Assembly: GCA_037189525.1 (NCBI GenBank)
Contig: JBBCJC010000001.1
Span: 768,001-832,000, forward strand
DNA: 64,000 nt
Direction: 5' to 3'
From: Gemmatimonadales bacterium
GTDB taxonomy: Bacteria > Gemmatimonadota > Gemmatimonadetes > Gemmatimonadales > GWC2-71-9
The notes under the pieces: model-generated
Databases searched by the model: none
The model's input: only the letters and a program-made list of their open reading frames with translations
Told to the model about the DNA's origin: nothing
In this document: positions 14,053-29,021 of the stretch, piece after piece
Layout: every line of letters begins with the position of its first letter
Numbering within the stretch: the stretch's first letter is position 1
Position numbers and translations under genes: made by a program

Positions 14053-15015
14053 TTAGGCGGCCTGGGTCGCGCTCTGCCGCTTGGCCGCATAGGCCAGCGC
14101 CGCATCGCGTACCCACTGCCCGTCTTCGTGCGCCTTCCGGCGCGCCGCGATCCGTTCCTGGTTGCAGGGCCCGTTCCCGGCCAGCACCTGCTTGAACTCC
14201 TCCCAGTCGATCGGACCGGTCAACCAGTCGCCCGAGGCTTCGTCGAAGCGCAACTCGGGATCGGGAATCGTGAGGTCGATGGCCTTGGCCTGGGGAATGG
14301 TCAGGTTGATGAACCGCTGGCGCAGTTCGTCGTTCCCCTTCTGCTTCACCTTCCAACGCAGCAGGTCGCCGCTGTTGGGCGAATCCTTGTCGTGCGGCCC
14401 GAACATCATCAGCGATGGCCACCACCAGCGATTGACCGAATCCTGCACCATCGCCTTCTGGGCCGGGGTGCCCCGGGCCAGGGTGGCGCAGATCTCGTAA
14501 CCCTGCCGCTTGTGGAAGTTCTCTTCTTTACAGATCCGGACCATGGCCCGGGCATAAGGCCCGTAGGACGCGTGGGCCAGCATGGTCTGGTTGACGATGG
14601 CCGCGCCGTCGACGAACCAGCCGATCACACCCATATCGGCCCAGCTCAGGGTCGGATAGTTGAAGATGCTGGAATATTTGGCGGTGCCGTAGAGGTACTG
14701 GTCGATCAGCTCGTCGCGGGAGGTGCCGAGGGTCTCGGTGCCGCAATAGATATAGAGGCCGTGGCCGGCTTCGTCCTGGACCTTGGCCAGGAGCGACATC
14801 TTCCGCCGGAGGCTGGGCGCCCGGGTAATCCAGTTGCCCTCCGGGAGCATCCCGACCACCTCGGAGTGGGCGTGCTGAGACATCATCCGGGTCAGCTGCC
14901 GGCGGTACTTCTCCGGCATCCAGTCCTTCGGTTCGATGGTTTCGCCCGCATCGATCCGGGCATCGAACTCGGCCTGCTTGACCGGATCCTCGGTGATCGT
15001 CTTATCGGTGGCCAT
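14053..15015 (-). CDS. paaA: Phenylacetyl-CoA epoxidase subunit PaaA
   Basis: [30 protein letters not shown] di-iron motifs. Confidence 0.97.
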
Positions 15016-15147: not shown

Positions 15148-15320
15148 ACCAGGGTGACCCGCCGAAACACGGCCTTGTATGGCGCGCACTGTCGAAGCAG
15201 ATAGGTTATCGAGTCCCTCGTCACCCGACCTGCGGATAGCGGGCGCTGGCTGCACCGTACAGGAGAACCGCCATGAACCGCGCCATCCGCAATCTGTTGG
15301 CAACCACCGCCGTTGCAGCA
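15148..15320. repeat. Copy 1 of divergent-promoter repeat
   Basis: ATGGCGCGCACT...ATAGGTTATCGAGT...CCCG...GATAGCGGGCG; alignable with 18368-18480 and 18536-18586. Confidence 0.85.
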
Positions 15321-15872
15321 ACACCAGCCGGGCCGAATCGTCACCTGCAGTTCGACTGCGGCGCCGGACTCGTTGGCCAGCTTCCCGTCTTCTGGCCAAC
15401 GCTGCGCTGGGCCGCGGTTGCCAATACAGTCGTCTATACGGCAGATGATGCGGACCGATTCGTCATTTGGAACGCCGACACGCGAGATTCCAGCATCATT
15501 TCGGGGACAGCATTGCCTCGGCGGCCGAACCGGGACGCCGCTCTCGCGGTTACCGAAAGCATGGTTATCCATTCGCCGTCGCAACGATGCACTATGACGA
15601 AAGAAGACGTCCTGCGACAACGCGGCACAGCTGAGCGCATGCCTGTCATACGATCTATCAGGCTGGCACCGGATGGCGCGGTATGGGTTGCTCTCACAAC
15701 ACTTCCGGACGAACCGTCGTTCATCCGGGTCCATCGCCAGGGTACGACAGACACCATTATCGGAGGCACATTTCCAGACGTATTCCTGACCCCGAGCCGA
15801 TTTCTCGCCGAAACGATCGACTCGATCGGGCAAACCAGCCTGACCCTATGGGACTTGAGACGAACTCAATAA
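15273..15872 (+). pseudogene. Internally deleted paralog of the 18536-19657 beta-propeller lipoprotein
   Basis: N-terminal 17 aa and C-terminal ~180 aa align with the paralog; ~174 aa including the lipobox Cys are absent. Confidence 0.75.
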
Positions 15873-16104: not shown

Positions 16105-17040
16105 ATGCTCAGAATCTGGGGTTCTGCCGCTCGCATGGCCGTGTTCGTCGGGGTAGCCGGTTGCTGGGGTGATCAGCCAGCGGGTCCGGACGGCATCGAC
16201 CTCGCCTCGATCGTCACGCCCGAGGTCGCGCGGCAAATCGCGGACGGCCGGTTCACCCTCGGCGAACCAGTGGACGTCCTTCCCGTGCTGTCGGAGGCAA
16301 GCGCCAGACAACTCGCTCAGGTCTTGGGGCGACAGTTTGGTGCGCTCATACGATACGACCTCGAAGCTCAACACGAGGGGCCGATCGACTTCGCCAGGCT
16401 ACGGGCGTGCGGCCGCAGCTACTTCGCACGGAGCCCGTTCGATTCGATCCCCACCGACCGATCCGATCTCCGTTTCTACTTCGGTGCGTTCTGGATCGTC
16501 GGTCTCTGCGACGACGATCGGACAACCATAAGCGTTGCGGTCGCCGCGAATGCGACCGACCTTCGGATCGAGAACGGATGGGTTCATCCCGAACCGAACT
16601 CCCTCAAAATCGTCGGGGTCCCACCCGCCTGGAACGGAGCACTCCCCGTCGATCCCGAGCACGCGGCAAAATTCGTTACCGACCTGACATCGAGACGCGT
16701 AGCCGCCGTACCGGTGCTCTACGCACCCAATCCGCTGGATGCGTTCCCGCAGGGTGCGATCTGGGCGATCGAGCTGGATGATGATGTCGTCGTGCGGGGT
16801 ATCACGTCGTCGCAGACCGTCACGACGCCGCATGTGCTGGTATCCTCGATCAACGTGTCGGCGAATGCGATGCTCCGCGGCGGGGTCGCACTGTTCCTCG
16901 AACACCCCGACGCCCGGCGCAGCTTGGAGATCCCCGACGGCTGGGCCGATTCACCGGGATTCGTGCTTCAGGTACGGCGACAGGCCGTGCTGGACATCGA
17001 ACCGGCTACGATCGTGCGGAGCGGATCCAGCCAGCCGTGA
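16105..17040 (+). CDS. Hypothetical lipoprotein
   Basis: VAGC lipobox; 311-aa ORF with plausible composition; no family recognised. Confidence 0.7.
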   Translation: MLRIWGSAARMAVFVGVAGCWGDQPAGPDGIDLASIVTPEVARQIADGRFTLGEPVDVLPVLSEASARQLAQVLGRQFGALIRYDLEAQHEGPIDFARLRACGRSYFARSPFDSIPTDRSDLRFYFGAFWIVGLCDDDRTTISVAVAANATDLRIENGWVHPEPNSLKIVGVPPAWNGALPVDPEHAAKFVTDLTSRRVAAVPVLYAPNPLDAFPQGAIWAIELDDDVVVRGITSSQTVTTPHVLVSSINVSANAMLRGGVALFLEHPDARRSLEIPDGWADSPGFVLQVRRQAVLDIEPATIVRSGSSQP

Positions 17041-17161: not shown

Positions 17162-18421
17162 TCAATCCGGTCCGATCAATCGATGGACTCGGACGTGCTC
17201 GGCCGCCGAGGTATCGATGTAGACACCGTATAGCCGATCACGCTGAACACGCTGCAGAGTGAATCCCGGCGGCATCGTGATGGTGCCGTACCAGGTATCG
17301 TCGGGCCCGAAGAGCCACCAGCGCTCCGACTCCGATGTGGGCTCGTCGAGCGCGACATGCGGCAGACCACCCGCCGCGAATGGATACTGAAGCACCCAGA
17401 GCCGGCCGAGTTCGTCGACCAGCGCGCGAACGAAGAACGGCTTGTGCCGAGGAACGGGATAGTCGGCCAGGGGTCGATAGACGATCGCTTCCTCAGGATG
17501 ACGTTCGAGGTACCTGCGGCGGCGATCCTCGTATGCAGACCGATCGGCGCCAGTCACCGGAGCGAACTCGGCATGCCATCGGATGACCCGTTCGAGGCCG
17601 CCGGTTGGTCCGAATACCTGGATTTCGGGACGATCACCGGCTCCGAAGTAGACCCGATCATCGAAAGCCGCCCACACTGGTCGACGGCCGAATGGGAGTC
17701 CTGCTCCTACTGCTCGGCCGAGCACCGTGATCCGGGACAGCTCGGGACCGAGAAACCGATGCACCGTGTCCCAAAGAGCCTCATGGCGTTTCCACCACCA
17801 GAGCACCGCACTCTCGGTGAACACGCCGGCTTGCGGCTCGCGCGCCTCCCGATCCTCGAGCAGAACGGACGCGCAATCGTGGGAAATGCCCTCGATCCCG
17901 CGCGCAGTCGATCCCGAAGGGCCAGCAATGGGATATCGCCCGACGAATACGCCTTCCGGGGCGAAGACCCCGATGGCGCGCCCCTGATCGACGACCAGCG
18001 TATCACCTCGGCATCGGTAGGTTCCCCACATCCCCTCGAACTCGCCCGGCCCTCGTCCCCGCCGTCCGATCGTGCCCAGCCGGCCCCCGGTCGAGTCAAA
18101 GATGACCAGACGGAAGGTCCCGTTGTCCTGTACGACGATCCGCCCATTACTGAGCGGCTGTACCGCTCCGACCACGCCCAACAGATGTGTCGTATCCTCC
18201 TGGTCTCGGCCGATATCGACGACCGGGGTCGACCCGACCGTCCATGCTTCGCCAGGTCCCCAGGATGGACGCTGCGCATATGTGATCCGTACGCCGGCAC
18301 TGTCCGAACGCGTGACCGCCAGCGACTCTACCGCCGAGCCACTGCAGCCGAGCACCATACCGGCCAACAGGGCGACCCCGCCGAAATACCGGCCCGTATG
18401 GCGCGCACTATCGAAACGCAT
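17162..18421 (-). CDS. 6-bladed beta-propeller lipoprotein
   Basis: VLGC lipobox, DSAGVRI, GRRGRGPGEF, VDELGRLWV. Confidence 0.8.
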   Translation of the reverse strand: MRFDSARHTGRYFGGVALLAGMVLGCSGSAVESLAVTRSDSAGVRITYAQRPSWGPGEAWTVGSTPVVDIGRDQEDTTHLLGVVGAVQPLSNGRIVVQDNGTFRLVIFDSTGGRLGTIGRRGRGPGEFEGMWGTYRCRGDTLVVDQGRAIGVFAPEGVFVGRYPIAGPSGSTARGIEGISHDCASVLLEDREAREPQAGVFTESAVLWWWKRHEALWDTVHRFLGPELSRITVLGRAVGAGLPFGRRPVWAAFDDRVYFGAGDRPEIQVFGPTGGLERVIRWHAEFAPVTGADRSAYEDRRRRYLERHPEEAIVYRPLADYPVPRHKPFFVRALVDELGRLWVLQYPFAAGGLPHVALDEPTSESERWWLFGPDDTWYGTITMPPGFTLQRVQRDRLYGVYIDTSAAEHVRVHRLIGPD

Positions 18422-18480: not shown

Positions 18481-18535
18481 ACCGACGGATGGCAGTCAAA
18501 CGCGAGATTCCTTGCCAGCCATCTGGAGATCTGTC

Positions 18536-19657
18536 ATGAGCCGCGTCATCCACAGCCTGTTGGCAACCAGCGCCATTGCTGCAACGGGATGTGGACCCGA
18601 ACCCCTGCCGACGCTTGACCACACCGACCTAACGACCGTACGAGTTGGCACCGTCACCTCGACCGCAGCGGCCGGTTTCGAACTCAAAGGGACGCTCGAG
18701 CGAGGTAGCGGCGTTGCACTCGACGACCATCACATCGCCCTGCTCGATCGAGAGGCCCGACAGGTCGTGATCGTCGACACGAACGGCCAAACCCGGTTTC
18801 GGCTTGGCAAACAAGGATGGGACGAGGGTCAGTTCATGAGCCCCGCGTTCGCCATACGAACCGATTCGGGAGTGGCCGTCTTCGATGCGCTCCGAACCGT
18901 CATGGTCCGATTCGACAACCGGGGTCGCCAGAAGAAAGACACCCCCCAGTTCGATGCGCTCGGCATTCCGACGTGGGGTGGGTTTACCGGGATGGCGCAG
19001 CTATCGGACGGCAGTTGGGTCTATTCTGTGACCGGGACTACGGACGCGGGACATCTGGAGGCACTGTTCCGCAGAACCGAAGGATCCACTCACCTCATCG
19101 CCACCACTCCGCCTGGTCCGGTGCCGCCACTCCGCTTCGAATGCGGCGCCCGATTGATCGCAGGCAGTCGCGTGTTCTGGCCGACCCTGCGCTGGGCGAC
19201 CAACGGCCATCAGGTCGTCTACGCCGCCACCGCCGACGATCGCGTCGCAACCTGGGATGTCAGTACCGGCGACTCTACCGTCATACTCGGCCAGGGCCCC
19301 TCACGACGATCGAGCGAAGAATCCGCGCTTGCCGTTACCGAACCCCTCACGATCCAGACACTCTCTCAACGCTGTGAGATGACCAAAGAAGACGTGGTCA
19401 AACAGCGCGGGATGACCGAGAGAATGCCCGCCATCCGGTCTGTTGCCATCGCCCCCGACGGCACGGTGTGGGTTGCGATGACGACGCTCCCGCCAGAGCC
19501 TTCGTTCATTCGGGTACACGGAACGATCGCAACCGATACGATCGTCGGCGGCACCTTTCCCGATGCATTCCTGACGCCGACGAGATTTCTGGCTGAGCAG
19601 ACGGACACCACCGGACAGACTGCCATCACGATCTGGGAACTACGGCACCGTCCATAG
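18536..19657 (+). CDS. 6-bladed beta-propeller lipoprotein
   Basis: GGAG RBS, ATGC lipobox-like, GKQGWDEGQF, IAPDGTVWV. Confidence 0.75.
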   Translation: MSRVIHSLLATSAIAATGCGPEPLPTLDHTDLTTVRVGTVTSTAAAGFELKGTLERGSGVALDDHHIALLDREARQVVIVDTNGQTRFRLGKQGWDEGQFMSPAFAIRTDSGVAVFDALRTVMVRFDNRGRQKKDTPQFDALGIPTWGGFTGMAQLSDGSWVYSVTGTTDAGHLEALFRRTEGSTHLIATTPPGPVPPLRFECGARLIAGSRVFWPTLRWATNGHQVVYAATADDRVATWDVSTGDSTVILGQGPSRRSSEESALAVTEPLTIQTLSQRCEMTKEDVVKQRGMTERMPAIRSVAIAPDGTVWVAMTTLPPEPSFIRVHGTIATDTIVGGTFPDAFLTPTRFLAEQTDTTGQTAITIWELRHRP

Positions 19658-19680: not shown

Positions 19681-20013
19681 TCACGGTTTTGGGACGACGC
19701 GAGGATCGGGGACCACGGGAAGGGATACGAACGACGCATGGACGCCGCCCCGATGGACCGCCTGCTGCGCTACGACCGGTACCGTTCGCTCGAGCACGAC
19801 CGGCACAGGATGAGCGACGGCAGGCCGATACACATCCGCGAACAGCGTCATCCCGTCACGCATTGGGATCGGGACGGCAAACTGGCGAACGATCGAGTCG
19901 GCTGAACCCGCAACCGGCCAACGATTCGGCATCACGGTATCGAGCGCGACGGCACGAGAGCCGGGCAACACAGCAACGAGCATCGAGAGGACAGCTACGA
20001 GGGGTCTGGTCAT
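19681..20013 (-). pseudogene. CocE/NonD family hydrolase remnant (N- and C-termini fused)
   Basis: IPMRDGMTLFADVYRP...PVVLERT joined directly to VAQQAVHRGGVHASFVSLPVVP. Confidence 0.7.
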
Positions 20014-20074: not shown

Positions 20075-20635
20075 TCACTGATCCCAGGAATCGTGAAATA
20101 GCTGCGCCGACGCACTGCCCCCTGCCCGCTCCAGGTCCGGTGCCTCGGCCCCTCGTGCCGGATCGACCTGGCAGTAACGTCGATCGAAAAAGAGCAGCGG
20201 ATCGCGGGGCGGAAGTCCCAGATTCCGATCAATCACCTCGACAGTCACGACCAGATGGTCACCGCCCTCGAACGTCGCATCGATCTTGCCACCGAGAACG
20301 AATGCAGCCCCTTCCAGGCGATGCACCTCACCCCACTCGACGAATCGATGCGGAGGTGGCGACGCTGCTTTCCACGAACCGGCAAAGTAGGTAGACAACG
20401 CCTGCTGGTCCGCTCGCAACACGTTGACGGAACAAGGCCGCCCCGGCGTGAGCAACGAGGCCATCCGTGCCTGTTTCCCGACACACAACAGCACCAGGGG
20501 TGGCGACAACGACAGCGACGTGAACGACCCGATCGTCATACCCTGTACCCCGCTGCCATCAGAGATCGCGAGCACCACGACACCCGTCGGGTATTGGCTC
20601 AATGCCTCTCGGAACGCAGCGGGTTCGATCGTCAC
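20075..20635 (-). CDS. hpaC: Flavin reductase (HpaC-like)
   Basis: FREALSQYPTGV, GMTIGSFTSLSLSPP, GGDH; GTGA overlap with NIPSNAP gene. Confidence 0.85.
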   Translation of the reverse strand: MTIEPAAFREALSQYPTGVVVLAISDGSGVQGMTIGSFTSLSLSPPLVLLCVGKQARMASLLTPGRPCSVNVLRADQQALSTYFAGSWKAASPPPHRFVEWGEVHRLEGAAFVLGGKIDATFEGGDHLVVTVEVIDRNLGLPPRDPLLFFDRRYCQVDPARGAEAPDLERAGGSASAQLFHDSWDQ

Positions 20636-20973
20636 AGGGGCTGTCCTCCTTCGAGCAAGGCTTCCATCCGAAAGAACGGCGCGGGATTCATCAATCGTGT
20701 TTCCTGAGTTTCCAGCAATGGATGAATTTTGGCGAGATAGCCGGGCCACCGCGGATCCGCCCGCATCCGTTCGCGGCATTCAGTCCGATGCTCGTAGCTC
20801 CGATAGGCCCAGAGATGAACGACCTGGTTGAGCGGGCCGATCTCCGTCACATAGTATCCGACGCAATGCGGCAGATACTCCCGCTGGATCAGCATACCCT
20901 CCGCCTGATACACCGCGAGATACTCGGCCAACTTGCCCATCTGAAACGTGTATGTGCGCTGCTCGACGATCAT
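20632..20973 (-). CDS. NIPSNAP family protein
   Basis: MIVEQRTY...EIGPLNQVVHLWAY...R...DPRW. Confidence 0.9.
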   Translation of the reverse strand: MIVEQRTYTFQMGKLAEYLAVYQAEGMLIQREYLPHCVGYYVTEIGPLNQVVHLWAYRSYEHRTECRERMRADPRWPGYLAKIHPLLETQETRLMNPAPFFRMEALLEGGQPL

Positions 20974-20976
20974 GCC

Positions 20977-21528
20977 TCACCCTTCCAGAAATGGAGTCTC
21001 GCCTTCGCCCCGAAGGCGGATATCGAATCGAAACATCTCCGCCGCGCCATCCGGTACGAGCATCAGCCGGCTCCGAACGGCCGGATCGATTGCCGCAAGC
21101 TGCGGATCAGCGGCGACGGCCGCCTCATCCGGAAAGAATGCTTCCGTTTCGAGCGGCCGCATCAACCCGGACCCCAGCAAGCGGAAGCACAGGTGCGGCG
21201 CCCGGATCGAACCGCCGGATGTCGCGACGGGTCTTCCCGGCCTCAAGGTCCGAAAATGATAGCATCCGTCCTCGTCCGTCCAGACTCGGCCCCAGCCCCT
21301 GAAACGGTCGGCGGCACCAACGCGCTGGCCGGCCGGATCGACCTGCCACAGTTCGACGATGACGTTGACCACCGGATGCCCTTCGCCGTCGATGATCCGG
21401 CCACGGACTTCGACCACATCACCCTCGACTCGCGTTCCATCCCGCCCGACGGTCAGATCTCCGTCGGTCGGGCCAATGAAGGCCGGCGGAAAGAACGGAC
21501 CCGTCGTATGCCACGCCATGCCCGTCAC
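20977..21528 (-). CDS. pcaG: Protocatechuate 3,4-dioxygenase alpha subunit-like
   Basis: TTGPFF, ELWQ, GWGR, RAPH, FDIRLRGEGETPF. Confidence 0.85.
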   Translation of the reverse strand: MTGMAWHTTGPFFPPAFIGPTDGDLTVGRDGTRVEGDVVEVRGRIIDGEGHPVVNVIVELWQVDPAGQRVGAADRFRGWGRVWTDEDGCYHFRTLRPGRPVATSGGSIRAPHLCFRLLGSGLMRPLETEAFFPDEAAVAADPQLAAIDPAVRSRLMLVPDGAAEMFRFDIRLRGEGETPFLEG

Positions 21529-22241
21529 GGGTGATCGTCCTCCAGCGGAGTCTCACGACTGCCGCCGAGCACGAAGTCATGGGAATAACCGAGCGCGCCG
21601 TCCGCTGTCGAAAGGTCCGGATCGAAGGCGGAGACCAATCGAGATCGCGCGCGCTCGTCGCGGATGCTGTTGAGCAGGAGATCGTACGCGTTGAGCGGCT
21701 CGCCCGGGAAATACATCTGAGTCACCAGACGTTTGCCGAACCCGTCGCCGAAGATCGAGAAATGAATGTGCGGGGGCCGCCACCACCCGGCCAGCTGCCC
21801 ATCACCGTCATAGGGCACTGCGTACCCGCCAGGCTTGATGGTACGCAGCTGATACCGCCCTTCGGCGTCGGTCACGATCCGGCCGACCCCTTCGAAATTG
21901 GGATCCACCGGCACCGGCGACGGATCGGCCGGGTGAATGTATTTGCCCGCCGAGTTGGCCTGCCAACACTCGAGCAACGCGTGACGGATCGGCCGGCCGG
22001 CTTCGTCCACGATACGCCCGGTCACCACGATCAGCTGACCAAGCGCGCGCGGCCTGCCAGGCGAGATAACCGACAGATCGCAGGTGGGCGGAAACGTCAC
22101 CAGCTCCGCTCCAAACGAGGCCGGCACCTCTACTGGCGCCACGCGCGGCCACGAGGGCGCCAACGGAGATCGTAACAGACTCTTCCGATAGCCGGGCACA
22201 TGGCGCGGCGGCTGGGTGGCGTCGCTCTGGTCGACCGTCAT
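21525..22241 (-). CDS. pcaH: Protocatechuate 3,4-dioxygenase beta subunit-like
   Basis: YRKSLLRSP, WQANSAGKY, DPNFEG, IKPGGY, WRPPHIHFS, RLVTQMYF; 2 Tyr + 2 His iron ligands present. Confidence 0.9.
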   Translation of the reverse strand: MTVDQSDATQPPRHVPGYRKSLLRSPLAPSWPRVAPVEVPASFGAELVTFPPTCDLSVISPGRPRALGQLIVVTGRIVDEAGRPIRHALLECWQANSAGKYIHPADPSPVPVDPNFEGVGRIVTDAEGRYQLRTIKPGGYAVPYDGDGQLAGWWRPPHIHFSIFGDGFGKRLVTQMYFPGEPLNAYDLLLNSIRDERARSRLVSAFDPDLSTADGALGYSHDFVLGGSRETPLEDDHP

Positions 22242-23407
22242 ACCACTTCCTTCTCCTGAAGCGCCAGACCGGCGACTCGGGTTCGATCGAGCTCGACGCC
22301 GAGCCCTGGGCCCGAGGGTACGGCCATGGCACCATCCCGAATAGCCAAGGCTCCGGTCACGACATCCTCACCAAGCACGTGGTGTCCGCAATCATTGGCG
22401 CGCTGGATCCCGGGAAACGCCGCCGTGAGGTGGAGATTCGCGGCTGTTCCAATACCGGTTTCGAAGAGACTGTGAATCGCGACCTCGAACCCAAGTGGCT
22501 CCGCAGCATGGACCAGCGCGCGGAACCGGCTCACTCCTCCCCAGAGATACAGGTCGGCCAGAATCACGTCGACCGGCCTGCTGTGTACCGCGGCTGCCAG
22601 ATGATCTGGCTGAATGATGCACATATTGGTGGCCACCGGCGTTCGCACCTGGCTGCGCAGGCGGGCGAGTCCGGCCTGATCGTCGGTCGGATCCTCGAAG
22701 AACTCGAGACCCAAATCATCCATGGACCGACAGAGCGCAATCGCCTCTGCAGGGGGATAGCCGGCATTGGGATCGAACCTGAGCGCGGCCTCGGGCAGAC
22801 GCTCGCGAAGCGCCGACATGACGGCCCGATCGAAGGCGGGACTGACGGCCGCACTCTTGTACTTGAAGCAACGAAACCCATACTGATCGGACTGGCGAAC
22901 GGCATACTCGACAACGGCATCGATCCGACCGAGATCGCCGAACAGCCGAGTCACCTCGGCCCTGGACAACGGATGGTCGAGCATCAGCGCAGGAAGCGGA
23001 CAAACCAGATCGACCGGCCCCCGTCGACCGGCACCGAGCATCCCACCCAGCGATACGCCGGCCATCCGGGCGCTCAGATCCCACAATGCGAGATCGAGTC
23101 CGCCTGAAACCGACCACCCGGTCCGGCCGAATCGATTGTCGAACACCGAACGAGCGTAGCGGCGTTCGACGACTCGGCGCTCGATCGGGTCTACGCCGAT
23201 CAGTCCTACCGCCAGCTGAGCGGCCAGATGAAAAGCTTCGGCTGTGCCGTGGGCCTCTCCATAGCCGCAGAACTCGCCATCGCTGGTTTCGACTTCGATG
23301 ACCGTCCGCAGGGTATCCTGCATCACGTACATCGAGCTCAGATAAACCATCCGGAGCGGAATCCGCACCTGCCACAGGCGGACACGACCGATCCGTCGGG
23401 AACTCAT
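22238..23407 (-). CDS. Enolase superfamily, glucarate dehydratase-like subgroup
   Basis: KYK, DPN, EDP, ATNM (Asn as third metal ligand), IHS, PSGPGLGVELD. Confidence 0.85.
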   Translation of the reverse strand: MSSRRIGRVRLWQVRIPLRMVYLSSMYVMQDTLRTVIEVETSDGEFCGYGEAHGTAEAFHLAAQLAVGLIGVDPIERRVVERRYARSVFDNRFGRTGWSVSGGLDLALWDLSARMAGVSLGGMLGAGRRGPVDLVCPLPALMLDHPLSRAEVTRLFGDLGRIDAVVEYAVRQSDQYGFRCFKYKSAAVSPAFDRAVMSALRERLPEAALRFDPNAGYPPAEAIALCRSMDDLGLEFFEDPTDDQAGLARLRSQVRTPVATNMCIIQPDHLAAAVHSRPVDVILADLYLWGGVSRFRALVHAAEPLGFEVAIHSLFETGIGTAANLHLTAAFPGIQRANDCGHHVLGEDVVTGALAIRDGAMAVPSGPGLGVELDRTRVAGLALQEKEVV

Positions 23408-24069
23408 GCCGGCATCCGCCCAACCGAGAATACCGGCTTCTGCCGGTCGGGCGACACGAACTGCGCATCCGACGGCCGGCCGAGCGTGGCCATCGGGAGC
23501 GCCTCCCGCAACGCCACCGCAACCGGCTCGGCCCGGCTGCCGTCCGGGACCTCGATGGCTAGTCCAACCTGCAGGACCCGGCAGAGCGCATCGAGCCGAA
23601 GGAGCGCAGCAACCGACCAGACCCGCGGGTCGAGGCGAAGCCATGCGACATGCGCGCCTTGCAGCCACGCCGCGATCTCATCGAAGCTCGCGTCCTCCAC
23701 GGTATGGCCATCAGCGCCCAGAGTGTCAGGATCGATTATCTGACCGGTACCTCGGACCGAGCCGCCCAACCACTGGCTGAGCGAAACCCCGGCAGCGGCA
23801 GCGGTCAGGGCAGCAAGCCCGTTCTCGACGCCCGAGAAGGCAACCCAATCGAGCCCGCCGGAGACTGGACGGTCAGCCCAACGCCGGCTTTCGGCAACGA
23901 TGGGGCGACCCAGCTGCAGCGTTAGGCGATCGGCGAGGCGGCTAGCCAGCCCGGCATCGTTCCTCGCAACGGATCGACTCTGGTTGCCACGGTCGTCCAC
24001 GAGAAAGACGACGAGTTCGTCACCGACCTCATCCGCCGAGGCATAGACCAGAACGCGATCATCGAGCAC
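23404..24069 (-). CDS. Degenerate enolase-superfamily-like protein
   Basis: AFSGVENGLAALTAAAAGVSLSQWLGGSVR resembles the capping-domain helix; no KxK or metal ligands; overlaps both neighbours. Confidence 0.55.
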   Translation of the reverse strand: MLDDRVLVYASADEVGDELVVFLVDDRGNQSRSVARNDAGLASRLADRLTLQLGRPIVAESRRWADRPVSGGLDWVAFSGVENGLAALTAAAAGVSLSQWLGGSVRGTGQIIDPDTLGADGHTVEDASFDEIAAWLQGAHVAWLRLDPRVWSVAALLRLDALCRVLQVGLAIEVPDGSRAEPVAVALREALPMATLGRPSDAQFVSPDRQKPVFSVGRMPA

Positions 24070-24808
24070 GAGGCACCTTGGCCAGATCGAGCACCGATTC
24101 GCCGGCATCGATCCGGGCTATCCGCTTCGCTTCCGCCTGTTCGAGGGACGAAACGAGCTCCGCCACCTGCGCTGCGAGCGCCCGCGGAACGAAGACCACC
24201 CCCGCATCGTCGGCGACGACGAGGTCACCGGGGTGGACCGTGATACCCGAGATCACGACAGCCTGATTGACGGCCATCGTCTCGAGCCGGTACTTCCCCG
24301 TCATCGGACTCGAGCCCCGAGACCAGACCGGATAGCCCAGCTGGCGCAACGAAGCAACATCTCGTACCGCGCCGTCCACAACGGCGCCAAGTTCTCCCTG
24401 GCGGAACCCGATGGCGGCCGAGATGCGTCCCATGCTGGAGATTCCCGGGGCGCCGGCCACGACGAGCACGTCACCCCGGTCGGCTTGATTGTGCGCTTCG
24501 ATATCGGCGAGCCGCACATCACCTTCCTGCACGCGGCGCCGCATGACCTCGGCAGACGGCAGCTCCGCATCACGCACGACATGCCGGACCGTGAGCGCGC
24601 GCCCGACGACGCGACGGCCCGGCATGGTCGGATTCAGTTCGGACGCAGGAACCGCCCCAACGACCCCCAACCCATCGAGCACATCGGACACCGCGCTGGA
24701 GGCGTCATCGATACTGCGGAAGAACGCGAGCACCTCGTCCGGAACCTGCGGCATCGGGCGTGCTCCGATACGATCAGCCGCCAGACGTCCGGTCAGCGAG
24801 CGCGTCAT
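24059..24808 (-). CDS. RraA family protein (HMG/CHA aldolase-like)
   Basis: VSDVLD, GRALTV, GAVVDGAVRD, VHPGDLVVADDAGVVFVP. Confidence 0.88.
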   Translation of the reverse strand: MTRSLTGRLAADRIGARPMPQVPDEVLAFFRSIDDASSAVSDVLDGLGVVGAVPASELNPTMPGRRVVGRALTVRHVVRDAELPSAEVMRRRVQEGDVRLADIEAHNQADRGDVLVVAGAPGISSMGRISAAIGFRQGELGAVVDGAVRDVASLRQLGYPVWSRGSSPMTGKYRLETMAVNQAVVISGITVHPGDLVVADDAGVVFVPRALAAQVAELVSSLEQAEAKRIARIDAGESVLDLAKVPRAR

Positions 24809-24809
24809 C

Positions 24810-25712
24810 TCAACGCCCCACCCCTGGCGCCAGCGGACCGAATCGCTGCTCGGGAAGTCCCACGACTCCGGGCTTCACGGCAAACAGGCCACCGGCCAAC
24901 GGTTGCTCCGCACGTTCCTCCGGCGTCAGCCGCTGCCAGGCCGTCGTGATATAGAGCGTATCGAGCGCCGGACCACCGAAGGCACAGCAGGTTGCGTTGC
25001 GCACCGGCAGCGAGACGATGCGATCGACCGTCCCATCCGGGCGATAGCGCACCACGCGCCCTCCGTTGTACTCGGCGTTCCAGAGGCATCCTTCTGCGTC
25101 GACCGTCGAGCCGTCGGGGCGGCCCGGCCGGCCGGTCAGGTCCACCAGCACCCGATCCGGACCCAGCCTGCCTGCTTCGAGATCGAAATCGAAGACCTGA
25201 ATCTGATAGCGGTAGGTATCGGCGAAATACATCCGGCGCCCGTCCGGACTCCACGCCGTGCTGTTCGGCACCACGATCCCATTGAAGAATCGTTCTACCC
25301 GCCCGTCGGGATCGAGACGATAGAGTGAGCCGGTGGGCGACCGATCGCCCGTATTCATCGTGCCACACCAGAAGCGGCCTGCCCGGTCGACTCGGCCGTC
25401 GTTGAACCGGTGACCGGCCGGGACATCGCCCGGCGACGCCAACCATTTCAGCGTTTCGGTCTCCAGATCCACCAGCCAGAAGGCTGTCTCCAGCGCAGCA
25501 AGCAGCCTATCCTCGCCGGCGACGAACCCGATCGATCCGACCATTTCCGGCATCGGAACCGTCCCGCTCGCTCCGGAAGCCGGCTCGAACCACCAGATCA
25601 GCGGGGCACGGGTATCAACCCAGTAGAGCCGCTGGCGGCGGTCGCACCAGATCGGGCTTTCCCCGAGATGGTTTTCGGCCGGCAACACGCACGTCGCAAT
25701 GAGATCGGTCAT
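24810..25712 (-). CDS. SMP-30/gluconolactonase family lactonase
   Basis: LGESPIW, RFNDG, PNS, PDG, CAFGGPALDTLYIT. Confidence 0.92.
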   Translation of the reverse strand: MTDLIATCVLPAENHLGESPIWCDRRQRLYWVDTRAPLIWWFEPASGASGTVPMPEMVGSIGFVAGEDRLLAALETAFWLVDLETETLKWLASPGDVPAGHRFNDGRVDRAGRFWCGTMNTGDRSPTGSLYRLDPDGRVERFFNGIVVPNSTAWSPDGRRMYFADTYRYQIQVFDFDLEAGRLGPDRVLVDLTGRPGRPDGSTVDAEGCLWNAEYNGGRVVRYRPDGTVDRIVSLPVRNATCCAFGGPALDTLYITTAWQRLTPEERAEQPLAGGLFAVKPGVVGLPEQRFGPLAPGVGR

Positions 25713-26686
25713 CCCTGATACACCACGTTGAGGAGCGGTTCGCCTCGCGCGAGCCGATCGAGATTCGACGCAATAGTCGCCCAGCGGCGATTCACCATCC
25801 CGATCGTCCAGGCGGAGGAATGTGGCGTCATATAGACATTGGACAGCTCGTGAAATGGATGGCGCGACGGGCGAACATCCGCAACGTCGGGGGTCGGATA
25901 CTGATACCATGCGTCGAGCACCGCGCCCCCGATCCGCCTGGACGAGAGGGCATCGAACAGAGCATCCTCATCGACGATCTGACCTCGGGCCACGTTGATC
26001 ACCACGGCGGTCGGCCGCAGCAGGGCAAGTTCCCGCGCTCCGATCATCCCGATCGTTTCGGGGGTCAGTGCCGCCGTCACGACCAGAAAGTCGACCTGCC
26101 CCAGGAATTCGTCCAAACGTCCGACACCGCCGAACCAGTCGACTCCAGGTGGCAACGGCCGCTCCGTGCGGCTGCACACCATCACAGTCGTGTCCATCGC
26201 CTTCGCGCGCGGCACGATCGCCTCGGCGATGTGTCCAAACCCCAGGATTCCGACGGTCTTCCCGGCGAGTTCGTCCTGATAGGGCCCGGCGGTCCGGCCG
26301 CCGAGTCGCCAGGATCCTTCGATCCGGAAAGAGCGCTCGGCCTCCATGAAGCGCGAACACCATTGCAGCATTGCCAGCACGACGTACTCAGCAATCGGCA
26401 CTTCGTGGCCGAAGGCGTTGCACACCTTGCACCCGGGCGGCAGATACTCCAGATCGACCGCATCGTAGCCGGCCCCGCCCACCTGGAGCAGCTCGAGATC
26501 CGGTGCCGGCGGCATCGAGCGATCATAGCGCATCGTAATCGCGGCCCGCACCCCGACCAGCTCGGCTTCGACCGCGCGATACGGCGTATCGTCCGGCAGC
26601 GGCACGAACTCGATTGGCGCCGTTACCAGACCCTCGAGTCGCTCCTGCTGCGCCGTGGCCAACGAACCGAGCAGGGCAACCTTCAC
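25709..26686 (-). CDS. D-2-hydroxyacid dehydrogenase
   Basis: GILGFGHI, INVARG, VDE, TPHSS. Confidence 0.92.
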   Translation of the reverse strand: MKVALLGSLATAQQERLEGLVTAPIEFVPLPDDTPYRAVEAELVGVRAAITMRYDRSMPPAPDLELLQVGGAGYDAVDLEYLPPGCKVCNAFGHEVPIAEYVVLAMLQWCSRFMEAERSFRIEGSWRLGGRTAGPYQDELAGKTVGILGFGHIAEAIVPRAKAMDTTVMVCSRTERPLPPGVDWFGGVGRLDEFLGQVDFLVVTAALTPETIGMIGARELALLRPTAVVINVARGQIVDEDALFDALSSRRIGGAVLDAWYQYPTPDVADVRPSRHPFHELSNVYMTPHSSAWTIGMVNRRWATIASNLDRLARGEPLLNVVYQG

Positions 26687-28167
26687 TCCAGATCGCCGTC
26701 CGTCGCGGCGCGGGCCAGGAACTGGCGAACCTTATCCATATACATGGTCCGATCGTGGCTGTTGACCAGCGCCCCCGCCATCCGAACCGGGTCGCCGAAG
26801 AAGTACCGTTCGTAGAGCACCTGCCGCGTCCCGAAGGCCGAGATGGCCGTATCCCACGCCAGACGGAACAAGGGGATGCGGTCCAGCGCATCGAGGCGTG
26901 CTGCCTGAAAGTAACGCTTTACATCCTCGATCAGCGGCCCGTTGACGTCGGCTTCCGTCGGCATGGCAACCAGCCCCGCGGCGCCCAACTGCTGAATGAT
27001 TTCGATCATGCGCGGGTAGAGCCGCGGATAGAGATTCCGAGCCGCATCGAGCGGATCCCACGCAGGACGCATCACGCCGTACTCGTCGAGCGCAGCCCCC
27101 GCCTCCGCCGCAACCCGAAAGGCCCGCATCGTTTCCAGATTGACCCAAATCTCGGCCAGCTTTTCCTGGACGTGCTGAAACTGCTCGATGGCAATGGCAT
27201 CGATCATCATCGACGCGAGCCCGAGGAGATACTCGGTCTTGGCGATGTTCTTGATCAGCACCTGATGAGCCATGTTGGCCAGCGCGCCCGTTTTCTGGTA
27301 GGCGGCATTGCAACGCGCCACATCGCGGTAGAGAAAGACCCGTTCCCACGGCACGAACACGTCGTCGAAGATCACGACGGCATCCATCTCCTCGAAGCGC
27401 GAGGCGAGGGGATGATCGAAATGCGACCGGCCATGATCGACGGTTTCGCGGCAGAGGAACCGCAACCCCGGGGTATCCGTGGGGATCGAGAGGGCGTAGG
27501 CGTAGCGCTGGTCTTCTTCGGTGTTTCTGAGAAAGGTCGACGGAAACACCATGATCTCGTCGGCCACCGGCAGCGTGGCGAGCATCCGGCAGCCGCGCAC
27601 GACGATGCCGGCGTCGTTCTCGTCCTTCACCTTGGCGGCCAGGAACGGGTCGGCCTGCATCGCGGCGTGTACCGAGCGATTGGCCTGCGGGCTGCTGAGG
27701 GTGTGCGTCAGGCAGAGATCGTGGTCACGGATGTAGGCGTGATAGGCCCGGATATTCTCGCCGAAGCGCGGCTCGGCCTCACCCAGAAACGCGGCGCCTG
27801 CTGCGTATCCGGAAATCGACCGATTGATGTAGTCGGGCAGCCGTCCCATCATGCCCAGCGTCGCCCCGGTCCAGTGCGCCATCGACCGCCCGACCGCCCT
27901 CAGGTCCTCCGCGGTGGTCGGGTTCTGAAAGGAGCGCCCGACCCGAAACGGTCCGCCGGGCGAATCGAACAGCGTCAGCGCAGGCTCCTGCCACTGGAGA
28001 TCGTAGAGACGGGCCAGGGTTTTGATCCCTCCGGCAAAGCCGGGGGAAGTTGTAGGATCATTTATCCGCTCCCCGCGATGCCAGAGAGCAGGAGTCCTAT
28101 CCTTAAGTCGTTCAATGACTTGAGACCCTCGTCGCGCTCCGGAAGGAGACTGGGAGCTCATTTTCAT
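26683..28167 (-). CDS. hpaB: 4-hydroxyphenylacetate 3-monooxygenase-like oxygenase component (FADH2-dependent)
   Basis: MMGRLPDY, PQANRS, FDHPLASRFEEMDA, VPWERVF, RQVLYERYFFGDP; start may be 28161. Confidence 0.92.
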   Translation of the reverse strand: MKMSSQSPSGARRGSQVIERLKDRTPALWHRGERINDPTTSPGFAGGIKTLARLYDLQWQEPALTLFDSPGGPFRVGRSFQNPTTAEDLRAVGRSMAHWTGATLGMMGRLPDYINRSISGYAAGAAFLGEAEPRFGENIRAYHAYIRDHDLCLTHTLSSPQANRSVHAAMQADPFLAAKVKDENDAGIVVRGCRMLATLPVADEIMVFPSTFLRNTEEDQRYAYALSIPTDTPGLRFLCRETVDHGRSHFDHPLASRFEEMDAVVIFDDVFVPWERVFLYRDVARCNAAYQKTGALANMAHQVLIKNIAKTEYLLGLASMMIDAIAIEQFQHVQEKLAEIWVNLETMRAFRVAAEAGAALDEYGVMRPAWDPLDAARNLYPRLYPRMIEIIQQLGAAGLVAMPTEADVNGPLIEDVKRYFQAARLDALDRIPLFRLAWDTAISAFGTRQVLYERYFFGDPVRMAGALVNSHDRTMYMDKVRQFLARAATDGDLE

Positions 28168-28170
28168 GCC

Positions 28171-28189
28171 TTGATTGTTGAACAATTAA
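28171..28189. promoter_or_regulatory. Palindromic GntR-type operator
   Basis: TTGATTGTTGAACAATTAA (core ATTGTT-G-AACAAT) in an AT-rich gap between hpaB and gntR; half-site ATTGTTCA near 28248. Confidence 0.65.
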
Positions 28190-28259
28190 GATATATTCAT
28201 GAATCCTTCTCGCAAGCCATTGCGTCGACGTTGTTTACTTGGAGAGGATTGTTCATCAG

Positions 28260-29021
28260 ATGAACCCGACCCTGCCCCGGCTCAGTCGAGAGCGGCCGAC
28301 CGCCCGAGGATCGATGACCTCTCCCGCCACCCCGCGTACCCACGACCCACTGTCGGATGCGAACCGCGCGGACGTCGCCGCCCATACGCTTGCATCCCGG
28401 ATTCTCCGTGGCGAGCTTGCTCCCGGCACGCGCCTCCCGGAAATCGAGCTCGCGACCGCACTGGACGTCTCCCGCAACACGCTGCGCGAAGCGATCAAGA
28501 TTCTGGCGGCGCGCGGGTTGGTGCAGCTGCAGCGGCACCGGAGCGCTACAGTGGCCACGCTGTCGGCGGATGGCGTCCGGGATCTCTATCGGATGCGCCG
28601 GCTGCTCGAACTGTCCGCCGTCGAGGCCAGCGCCGGCCAACCGGCCGAGAGCTTTCATGAGATCGGCGCAGCGATCGGCCAACTGACCCGGGCGGCAACG
28701 CTCGACGACCCGGTTGCGATCATCGAGGCCGACCTCGCCTTTCATCGGGCCGTGGTCCGCCTCCATGGCAGCGAACGCATCGAATCGGCGTTTACGGCGG
28801 GCCTCGACGAGTTGCGGCTGGGATTGGCCCTGCTCGATGCGCGGACCGAGCCGACGCTGGGCGGGCTGGTTGACGACCATCGGGCCATGTACGGACTGCT
28901 GCTGCGTGGCGAGCAGGATGGGTGTCGGCAGTTACTCCGCGCGCATCTTGGCGCATCGGAGGAGCAGGTACTGACGGCGCTCGAACGAGCCGGCAACGGA
29001 GGTTCGAGCAACGGACCCTGA
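28260..29021 (+). CDS. GntR family regulator (FCD domain)
   Basis: ILRGELAPGTRL.E.ELA..LDVSRNTLREA; DLAFH, DDH; start may be 28314. Confidence 0.92.
   Translation: MNPTLPRLSRERPTARGSMTSPATPRTHDPLSDANRADVAAHTLASRILRGELAPGTRLPEIELATALDVSRNTLREAIKILAARGLVQLQRHRSATVATLSADGVRDLYRMRRLLELSAVEASAGQPAESFHEIGAAIGQLTRAATLDDPVAIIEADLAFHRAVVRLHGSERIESAFTAGLDELRLGLALLDARTEPTLGGLVDDHRAMYGLLLRGEQDGCRQLLRAHLGASEEQVLTALERAGNGGSSNGP

Follow-up and report, generated by a model that had tools for sequence, protein, structure and literature searches.

How could a bacterium dispose of the product of intradiol ring cleavage if it lacks the cycloisomerase that normally receives it? Ortho cleavage by PcaGH is taught as leading to PcaB and the beta-ketoadipate pathway, and homoprotocatechuate as being cleaved in the meta position. 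This question is raised by an operon of a Gemmatimonadales bacterium (GenBank assembly GCA_037189525.1, contig JBBCJC010000001.1, positions 768,001 to 832,000 of the forward strand; this entire stretch of 64,000 nucleotides is referred to as the window), in which PcaGH-like subunits are encoded alongside an HpaB-like hydroxylase with its flavin reductase, an enolase-superfamily enzyme with a degenerate paralog, an SMP-30-family lactonase, a 2-hydroxyacid dehydrogenase, an RraA-fold protein and a NIPSNAP protein (Table 1). We find it to be a real, conserved and apparently undescribed variant of aerobic aromatic catabolism, with enzymes of known folds assembled around an uncharacterised dioxygenase subfamily.

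The beta subunit of the dioxygenase retains equivalents of the iron ligands Tyr408, Tyr447, His460 and His462, along with Arg457 (aligned to 2PCD and 1EO2). It scores 219.5 against the TIGR02422 cut-off of 296.4, and the alpha subunit just exceeds that of TIGR02423 (127 against 126.25). The two altered positions are alpha-Arg133, which we take to bind the carboxylate of protocatechuate, and beta-Trp449, which presumably lines the substrate pocket. Among the copies linked to the enolase gene discussed below, alpha-133 is Ser in 35/35, and beta-449 is Val in 33/35 and Ala in 2/35. This count omits six loci dropped by a pattern filter (L041, L060, L061, L063, L072 and L078; L numbers denote surveyed loci), all six of which have the beta-Val, while five have the alpha-Ser and the alpha motif of L041 likewise has Ser. 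The pcaB-linked controls have Trp at beta-449 in 7/7 and Arg at alpha-133 in 6/6 readable copies (one being unreadable). The variant alpha subunits also have a new, invariant Arg, placed four residues past alpha-133. In loci collected with the variant PcaG as bait (n=39), alpha-133 is Ser in 29, Ala in 8 and unreadable in 2, and pcaB, pcaC and pobA were scored in 0/39.

A quick maximum-likelihood tree, built from 32 concatenated alpha/beta pairs and rooted only at the midpoint, has one branch (Shimodaira-Hasegawa-like approximate likelihood ratio test, 100) that splits 22 variant pairs from nine canonical pairs and the sulfocatechol enzyme of Novosphingobium resinovorum SA1. All five proteobacterial carriers of the variant keep a canonical pcaH and pcaB elsewhere, as is to be expected of a paralog with another substrate. 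Judged by its sequence, the variant PcaGH is thus not a canonical protocatechuate 3,4-dioxygenase and forms a distinct, retuned subfamily; a preliminary description of the window had recognised the intradiol family and missed this distinction. Given the replacement of both pocket residues, the separate branch and the canonical paralog in the proteobacterial carriers, we infer a substrate other than protocatechuate. Identity with the type II sulfocatechol enzymes was considered and rejected: comparison with one reference cluster revealed only the beta-449 Val in common, with alpha-133 not being basic in the variant and the variant lying outside the canonical group.

It is accordingly quite improbable that the operon performs ordinary protocatechuate chemistry, feeding 3-carboxymuconate into a new lower pathway, or represents a sulfocatechol-type pathway. 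The marginal pass of PcaG, the shared beta-449 Val and the fumarase-like and HMG-CoA-lyase-like partners described below, which would suit an aconitate-like triacid, speak for it. They are set against the sub-threshold PcaH and the SA1 enzyme, whose alpha-133 is Lys and which clusters with the canonical enzymes; furthermore, the PcaB-like enzyme, sulfomuconolactone hydrolase and maleylacetate reductase of the SA1 cluster were not found in the operon, nor was a pobA-like gene in 51 enolase-clade loci.

A variant PcaGH clade without PcaB nearby was detected in 29/251 genomes of a Roseomonas family sample and 10/301 of a betaproteobacterial order sample, with Roseomonas populi CN29, R. vinacea CCM 7468 and R. 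chloroacetimidivorans JCM 31050 being cultured carriers. A search of plasmids returned no close relative of either subunit, the best among the matches listed being 49% (PcaH) and 41% (PcaG) identical. R. populi also has a second variant pcaHG with Ala at alpha-133 (L199:1820-10730, G404:C9), followed by genes for an Fe-S fumarase-like pair, a 2-hydroxyacid dehydrogenase, a glutathione S-transferase, a CoA-transferase and an enoyl-CoA hydratase; similar sets occur at L265, L266, L267, L269 and L272. At L280 and L281, a further PcaH variant with Asn at beta-449 has as neighbours genes for a Rieske protein resembling phthalate dioxygenase and for a LigI-like lactonase. Genes for molybdenum hydroxylases (CoxLMS-like) near variant pcaHG at L037, L041, L055, L275, L276 and L279 hint at other upstream funnels. 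In the host genome, a third, partial Dioxygenase_C match lies at G000:C2:712397-712696.

The preliminary description had proposed an undescribed route and named three checks: co-occurrence of the gene set in other genomes, handling of the product by pcaBCD elsewhere in the genome, and a match to a characterised pathway. The gene set recurs in four other Gemmatimonadota genomes with 10, 10, 10 and 9 of the 10 genes. L021 and L029 have all ten in the same order, whereas in L033 all ten are rearranged, with divergent dehydrogenase, lactonase and RraA genes and a TetR in place of the GntR regulator. L056 (same genome as L022) has nine, lacking the pseudo-enolase and having an inserted gene for a CoA-acylating malonate-semialdehyde dehydrogenase; L030 and L031, cut by contig ends, show seven genes each. 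The cluster is rare, with the RraA profile positive in 3/401 sampled genomes of the phylum, host genome included. The best PcaB match in the host genome (98.1% complete) reaches 125 bits against a cut-off of 355.75, and no PcaB exceeds the cut-off in any of five Gemmatimonadota carriers (5/5; completeness known for two). Searches with tblastn yielded no PcaC match in the host genome and, for PcaD, only alpha/beta hydrolases of 25-33% identity. On the basis of these profile and tblastn searches we rejected a canonical pcaBCD set elsewhere, for the host genome and the five carriers. Meta cleavage was also rejected, since neither an HpaD over its cut-off nor a LigB-family extradiol enzyme was found in the host genome. 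In the literature surveyed, comprising titles and abstract openings with few subscription papers, there is no account of this gene set, of a characterised pathway with it, or of an enolase-coupled PcaGH. As none of the three checks refuted it, an undescribed PcaB-independent intradiol route is supported.

The candidate for the missing step is the enolase-superfamily enzyme. Its K182-x-K184, D212-x-N214, E238, N261, D285 and H312 are conserved across 41 homologues (90% of them or more), and display what we take to be the GlucD catalytic pattern of K-x-K, D-x-N, E and N ligands with a His/Asp pair. It scores 94 bits against the glucarate dehydratase cut-off of 828.7 (TIGR03247), and its best PDB matches, 4DYE/2OQH and 3VC5, are deposited as putative isomerase or MR/MLE protein; the plasmid search gave no close relative (best among the matches listed, 34%). 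A profile of this enzyme recovered 67 loci, of which 51 were taken as its clade (at least 37% identity, L079 left out) and 16 were more distant. In place of the sugar-acid context of glucarate dehydratase, 40 of these 51 loci, drawn from genomes that include many kin and hence not independent, have both pcaH and pcaG beside the enolase; of the remaining 11, the majority are short or stop at the enolase. Genes for pcaB, pcaC, pcaD and pobA are found in 0/51 of them, and pcaHG in 0/16 of the more distant loci. We judged it unlikely that the enolase acts upstream as a mandelate-type racemase, because no gene is linked to pcaHG more tightly than its own and because nothing would then be left to process the product of ring cleavage.

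The gene upstream of it codes for a protein without Pfam or NCBIfam matches that nonetheless aligns to the profile of the neighbouring enolase (hhalign probability 99.5%, E 1.3e-22), and its predicted fold (pLDDT, i.e. predicted local distance difference test, of 89) matches enolase-superfamily chains. Its catalytic residues are gone, as is the first half of its barrel, and its length ranges from 358 aa down to ~190 aa across loci. Where sufficient upstream DNA is available, a profile of this pseudo-enolase identified it in 40/46 loci, 20 of which had gone into the profile, and at six loci (L041, L055, L058, L059, L072 and L077) it is fused to the enolase. A model of the enolase/pseudo-enolase complex scores 0.90 against 0.00 for the best control, with 88% or more of the contacts common to the runs and a partner pLDDT of at least 89; the mark applied was reached by 116/157 solved complexes and 2/215 mismatched pairs, counts that apply only roughly with the alignments used. 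This pass may be owed to likeness to solved enolase oligomers. The pseudo-enolase is predicted to bind the enolase as a partner subunit, and the pair would likely replace the missing PcaB.

The entry substrate is suggested by HpaB, which exceeds the cut-off of the HpaB-1 type 4-hydroxyphenylacetate 3-monooxygenase and keeps equivalents of Arg100, Tyr104, His142, Ser197 and Thr198, so that this activity is predicted. Its best PDB match is Thermus HpaB (2YYG), and its best plasmid matches are Deinococcus hpaB genes (47-49%). The roles of the substrate residues of HpaB-1 are described in PMC10537072 and PMC6710988: Ser197/Thr198 bind the carboxylate of 4-hydroxyphenylacetate, and are His/Tyr in PheA, NphA and AphA, the hydroxylases of phenol, nitrophenol and alkylphenol, with the specificity determinants of such enzymes being termed not clear (PMC6710988). 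The retention of the Ser/Thr pair therefore favours a p-hydroxyphenyl acid over phenol. A fold search with the NIPSNAP protein retrieved uncharacterised NIPSNAP proteins first, followed by ABM-type barrels, with no lactone isomerase among the matches listed and no clue to function.

The remaining enzymes form a module of their own. The dehydrogenase has the motif D-x-W-Y-x-Y-P in place of the usual D-V-F-x-x-E-P, a feature common to the homologues in RraA modules; PDB searches with it and with the lactonase pointed to general families only, 7PLB and regucalcin being the best matches of the latter. The preliminary description had the RraA protein act as an aldolase of the HMG/CHA type (4-hydroxy-4-methyl-2-oxoglutarate/4-carboxy-4-hydroxy-2-oxoadipate); the family assignment stands, but its R-X20-R-D-X2-S fits neither D-X20-R-D nor G-X20-R-D-X2-E/D, which we take to be the metal motifs of these aldolases. 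The site of the first metal-binding Asp is Arg in 4 and Ala in 2 of 6 operon copies, and Gly (37), Ala (21) or Ser (2) in 60 RraA relatives; three residues past the Arg-Asp, the operon protein has Ser where 55/60 relatives have His. R149, D150 and E226, which are invariant in 10/10, align to the P. putida aldolase's Arg123, Asp124 and Glu199, where Arg123 is described as catalytic and Asp124 as a metal residue, alongside Glu199; two metal motifs are reported for these aldolases (PMC5065237). To judge from these residues, the RraA site is remodelled or weakened and is not that of a standard HMG/CHA aldolase. The fold can support other chemistry on such skeletons, as the family member FlDet, which serves in the use of alginate, is a 2-keto-3-deoxyglucarate dehydratase/decarboxylase (PMC8563752).

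We surveyed the best 80 of 271 metagenome matches to the RraA profile, many of them on short contigs. The RraA gene lies beside a lactonase gene in 44/80 loci (SMP-30 in 21, LigI-like amidohydrolase in 23, never both), and the 21 SMP-30-type loci comprise 10 with this type of dehydrogenase and 11 with a malonate-semialdehyde dehydrogenase; the latter suggests that a 4-hydroxy-2-oxoadipate skeleton is split to pyruvate. At a 35% identity threshold, pcaH, hpaB and the operon-type enolase occur in 0/80 of these loci. Lactonase, dehydrogenase and RraA therefore constitute a separate module that is joined here to aromatic genes, a composition missed by the preliminary description, which had treated the operon as a single pathway. 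The operon might hold two modules that share their regulation but not their chemistry, an aromatic one (HpaBC, PcaGH, the enolase pair and NIPSNAP) and a lactone or sugar-acid one (SMP-30, dehydrogenase and RraA) for another compound of the same food source, a notion for which the complete separation in the metagenome loci and the alginate-related role of FlDet can be cited. We consider it improbable, as the linkage is kept in three gene orders (that of the window, L056 and the divergent L033) and the aromatic part alone would yield a dead-end product where no PcaB was found. In addition, L096, L097, L106 and L145 contain a stand-alone cluster of genes for a muconate-cycloisomerase-like enolase, a 2-hydroxyacid dehydrogenase, SMP-30, an RraA (G-X20-R-D-X2-H or its A variant) and a malonate-semialdehyde dehydrogenase, which looks like an undescribed lactone catabolic pathway.

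Other partners of the dioxygenase bear on what follows ring cleavage. Among the 51 enolase-clade loci, the proteobacterial ones have genes for 3-hydroxy-3-methylglutaryl-CoA (HMG-CoA) lyase-like proteins (21), CoA-transferase III (16), MetE-like proteins (19), acyl-CoA ligases (12), a succinyl-CoA-ligase-like pair (4) or thiamine pyrophosphate enzymes (6). An Fe-S fumarase/tartrate-dehydratase-like pair is present in 6/39 PcaG-baited loci. Going by family chemistry, hydro-lyases and retro-Claisen lyases would suit a beta-hydroxy acid formed by oxygen addition at the substituted carbon of a 3-substituted muconate. The idea, suggested by L199, that the Fe-S pair strictly replaces the enolase was dropped; the pair is only supporting context because the enolase is also present in 2/6 such loci. 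The MetE-like (PRK06520) gene near the enolase in 19/51 loci (e.g. L043:8472-9998) is flanked, where the locus is betaproteobacterial, by the HMG-CoA-lyase-like gene on one side and the pseudo-enolase on the other. The MarR neighbours score at best 40 bits against the HpaR cut-off of 121, which is uninformative as to an HpaR identity.

Taken together, we tentatively propose, at a little less than an even chance, that the operon serves to break down a p-hydroxyphenyl acid, either 4-hydroxyphenylacetate or a C3 homologue (e.g. 4-hydroxyphenyl-lactate), by an intradiol route without PcaB. HpaBC would add the ortho hydroxyl; the variant PcaGH would cleave the resulting non-protocatechuate catechol to a 3-substituted cis,cis-muconate; and the enolase/pseudo-enolase heteromer would do the job of PcaB by adding oxygen at the substituted carbon, through lactonisation or hydration. 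Thereafter, SMP-30 would open the lactone, the dehydrogenase would oxidise the 2-hydroxy acid to a 2-oxo acid, and the RraA-fold protein would release pyruvate and a 3-oxo acid by splitting a 4-substituted 4-hydroxy-2-oxoadipate. The architecture, namely the first three steps with the RraA module downstream, is probable; the whole order of steps is tentative, and somewhat short of an even chance. With a lactate side chain every enzyme but NIPSNAP would have a role, and the co-product would be maleylacetate. We also entertain, with greater reserve, the possibility that the operon is the Gemmatimonadota entry to a third alpha/beta intradiol dioxygenase subfamily, spread over Gemmatimonadota, Acidobacteriota, Alpha- and Betaproteobacteria, which ortho-cleaves side-chain catechols such as homoprotocatechuate or dihydroxyphenyl-lactate. 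Here the enolase/pseudo-enolase heteromer would oxygenate the substituted carbon, and the side chain would leave as pyruvate by a non-canonical RraA lyase in this operon or as acetyl-CoA by the HMG-CoA-lyase-like enzymes elsewhere.

Several observations weigh against this proposal. No maleylacetate reductase of the iron-containing alcohol dehydrogenase family was found in the host genome, and none exceeds the cut-off in the five carriers; therefore the predicted maleylacetate has no known outlet. With plain 4-hydroxyphenylacetate, the last two steps would have no 2-hydroxy acid to work on. The Arg or Ala at the first metal-Asp site of RraA and its missing His render the aldolase activity uncertain. 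The linkage is also weaker in reverse, with the enolase within ~9 kb in only 12/39 PcaG-baited loci, some of them short, so that not every member of the dioxygenase clade needs it. Finally, the semialdehyde dehydrogenase inside the L056 operon points to an unsubstituted skeleton.

Such a skeleton would arise if phenol or catechol were converted to pyrogallol, and thence via 2-hydroxymuconate or 2-pyrone-6-carboxylate and 4-hydroxy-2-oxoadipate to pyruvate and malonate semialdehyde, the latter yielding acetyl-CoA. Apart from L056 and the 11/21 SMP-30-type RraA loci, this accords with a 62% identical homologue of the semialdehyde dehydrogenase elsewhere in the host genome, and the loss of the basic alpha-133 residue, given the role we assume for Arg133, suits a ring without a carboxylate. 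There is little chance that it is correct: HpaB keeps its carboxylate-binding Ser/Thr, the HMG-CoA-lyase-like partners elsewhere imply a tertiary alcohol and hence a substituted ring, and the semialdehyde dehydrogenase family serves other pathways too.

The main rival to the p-hydroxyphenyl acid route, which we regard as rather unlikely, is a version with a triol and a pyrone. HpaBC would act twice to give 3,4,5-trihydroxyphenylacetate, which PcaGH would convert to 2-pyrone-6-carboxylate or 2-hydroxymuconate in substituted form; from this, lactonase and enolase would furnish 4-carboxymethyl-4-hydroxy-2-oxoadipate, and RraA would release pyruvate and 3-oxoglutarate, decarboxylating to acetoacetate. 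Some HpaB enzymes do make 3,4,5-trihydroxyphenylacetate (PMC10537072; an Acinetobacter-type enzyme), and canonical PcaHG converts gallate to 2-pyrone-4,6-dicarboxylate (PMC12481942) and pyrogallol to 2-pyrone-6-carboxylate (PMC6628648). Moreover, this route is self-contained, dispensing with the maleylacetate reductase that was not found, and its ketone product would explain both the missing semialdehyde dehydrogenase in 3/4 full homologous loci and the Arg gained by RraA. Yet it leaves the conserved 2-hydroxyacid dehydrogenase unexplained and requires the dioxygenase to ignore the diol formed first; and pyrones need a lactonase, whereas SMP-30 is present in only 4/51 enolase-clade loci and LigI-like lactonases in 3/39 PcaG-baited loci, and the proteobacterial loci, being poor in lactonases, fit it badly. 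The same two objections, an idle dehydrogenase and the lack of a pyrone-type lactonase in most same-clade dioxygenase loci, apply to the order given in the preliminary description, from pyrone through lactonase and hydratase to HMG/CHA aldolase, for whose last step the RraA site moreover fits neither metal motif; this order is thus only one option, while the PcaB-independent intradiol part of its undescribed route holds.

Table 1. Features of the operon and its control region in the window (strand relative to the window)
Feature	Coordinates	Strand	Basis
HpaC-type flavin reductase	20075..20635	-	PF01613; best NCBIfam match HpaC_Thermus, below cut-off
NIPSNAP dimeric alpha+beta barrel protein	20632..20973	-	PF07978
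PcaG-like alpha subunit, variant clade	20977..21528	-	Dioxygenase_C; Arg133 to Ser (aligned to 1EO2_A)
PcaH-like intradiol dioxygenase beta subunit, variant clade	21525..22241	-	Dioxygenase_C; Trp449 to Val; WWRPPH
Enolase-superfamily enzyme, glucarate-dehydratase-related group	22238..23407	-	MR_MLE; catalytic residues intact
Pseudo-enolase, predicted partner subunit	23404..24069	-	Degenerate paralog of adjacent enolase
RraA-fold protein, putative C-C lyase	24059..24808	-	PF03737; aligned to 3NOJ
SMP-30/gluconolactonase-family lactonase	24810..25712	-	PF08450 (SGL), 280 bits
D-2-hydroxyacid dehydrogenase family protein	25709..26686	-	PF02826; below every NCBIfam cut-off
HpaB, Thermus/Deinococcus-type flavin-dependent ortho-hydroxylase	26683..28161	-	HpaB_N/HpaB; TIGR02309 626 vs 480 bits
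Palindromic operator-like site, TTGT-N3-ACAA core	28170..28190	.	9/10 arm pairs; just upstream of hpaB
GntR/FCD (FadR-type) regulator	28260..29021	+	PF00392+PF07729; divergent; longest ORF from 28239

The arrangement of ten coupled minus-strand genes with a divergent GntR gene and a palindrome at 20075..29021, as originally described, is borne out by the open reading frames (ORFs) and their families, the overlaps between genes and the conserved palindrome core. Stop and start codons overlap by 4 nt at 6/9 gene junctions, the other three being 1, 3 and -11 nt, and the GC content of the cluster (0.63-0.66) is similar to that of the rest of the window. The likely true starts lie later than those of the longest ORFs for hpaB (28161), SMP-30 (25712), the pseudo-enolase (24069), the enolase (23407), the flavin reductase (20635) and gntR (28260), with GGAGAGG 12 nt ahead of the ATG of the last. 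Homologues of gntR are likewise divergent from hpaB at L021, L029 and L056. The palindrome is identical in L021 and L029, and L056 keeps its core with a changed spacer (core in 3/3 aligned homologous loci); the 4.65 Mb genome has only 10 AT-rich 21-mers of equal palindrome quality and only 2 ATTGT-N3-ACAAT boxes. We posit that the GntR protein binds this putative operator. A second, perfectly palindromic TTGT-N3-ACAA box lies at G000:C2:537276 of the same genome. A scan for sigma-70 promoters gave no match.

Directly after the flavin reductase gene, a truncated CocE/NonD-like (Peptidase_S15) remnant is found at 19681-20013 (-), whose counterpart in L021 and L029 has ~544 aa. Further downstream by 5 kb and on the same strand lie paaA (14053-15015) and the genes following it to the left. 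In L030 (4543-7096) and L031 (4924-7475), paaA-like genes directly follow the flavin reductase, an adjacency that suggests an arylacetate supercluster and counts in favour of the p-hydroxyphenyl acid route. Between the paa genes and the operon, the ORFs at 15273-15872, 16105-17040, 17162-18421 and 18512-19657 have no Pfam match over cut-off; one matches a 6-bladed propeller weakly, and two seem to be paralogs.

The retuned PcaGH clade would be a branch of aromatic catabolism missing so far, one probably labelled as protocatechuate degradation in databases. Were the reading as a third dioxygenase subfamily correct, aerobic aromatic catabolism would gain a new central route, and an orphan enolase group a function. 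The clade offers a testable function for the glucarate-dehydratase-related enolases whose solved relatives are deposited as putative, and clearly exemplifies a pseudo-enzyme subunit undergoing degeneration. The upgrading of lignin and phenolics is a field in which further intradiol specificities are sought (PMC6628648).

Among known systems, the protocatechuate branch of the beta-ketoadipate pathway (pcaHGBDC, pobA) shares with the operon an alpha/beta intradiol dioxygenase with the iron ligands and Arg457 kept, and probably a lactone-handling step after it; it differs in that the operon-type loci lack pcaB, pcaC, pcaD and pobA (0/51), with changed pocket residues, a separate branch and HpaBC upstream. 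The 4-sulfocatechol pathway (pcaH2G2/scaEF, pcaB2, 4-sulfomuconolactone hydrolase, maleylacetate reductase) likewise features a paralog of PcaGH adapted to a different 4-substituted catechol, a beta-449 Val and a downstream lactone hydrolase; however, its enzyme, with alpha-133 Lys and 40% identity to the operon PcaH, sits among canonical ones, and it employs a PcaB-type cycloisomerase and a reductase (PMC5632844) where the operon has the enolase pair and RraA. Homoprotocatechuate meta-cleavage (hpaBC, hpaD, hpaE, hpaH, hpaI; Thermus, Deinococcus) relies on an HpaB that falls into the NCBIfam family of the operon enzyme and has the same substrate residues, and ends, as the operon is proposed to do, in a pyruvate-releasing aldolase, but the operon opens the ring with an intradiol enzyme in a genome where no HpaD/LigB-type enzyme was found. 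The lower pathway of 4,5-cleavage for gallate and protocatechuate (LigI, LigU, LigJ, LigK; GalBCD) similarly runs from a lactonase through the addition of water to an RraA-fold lyase; in the operon the lactonase is of the SMP-30 and not the amidohydrolase type, the hydro-lyase is likely an enolase, a 2-hydroxyacid dehydrogenase is added, and the RraA protein, lacking the first metal Asp, scores 88 against the LigK cut-off of 304. Lastly, GlucD and the GlucD-related protein, which we take to form a heteromer (PDB 4GYP), present the same catalytic-residue pattern and the same pairing of an active enolase with a paralog from the adjacent gene, while in the operon the partner has lost half its barrel and the setting is aromatic ring cleavage.

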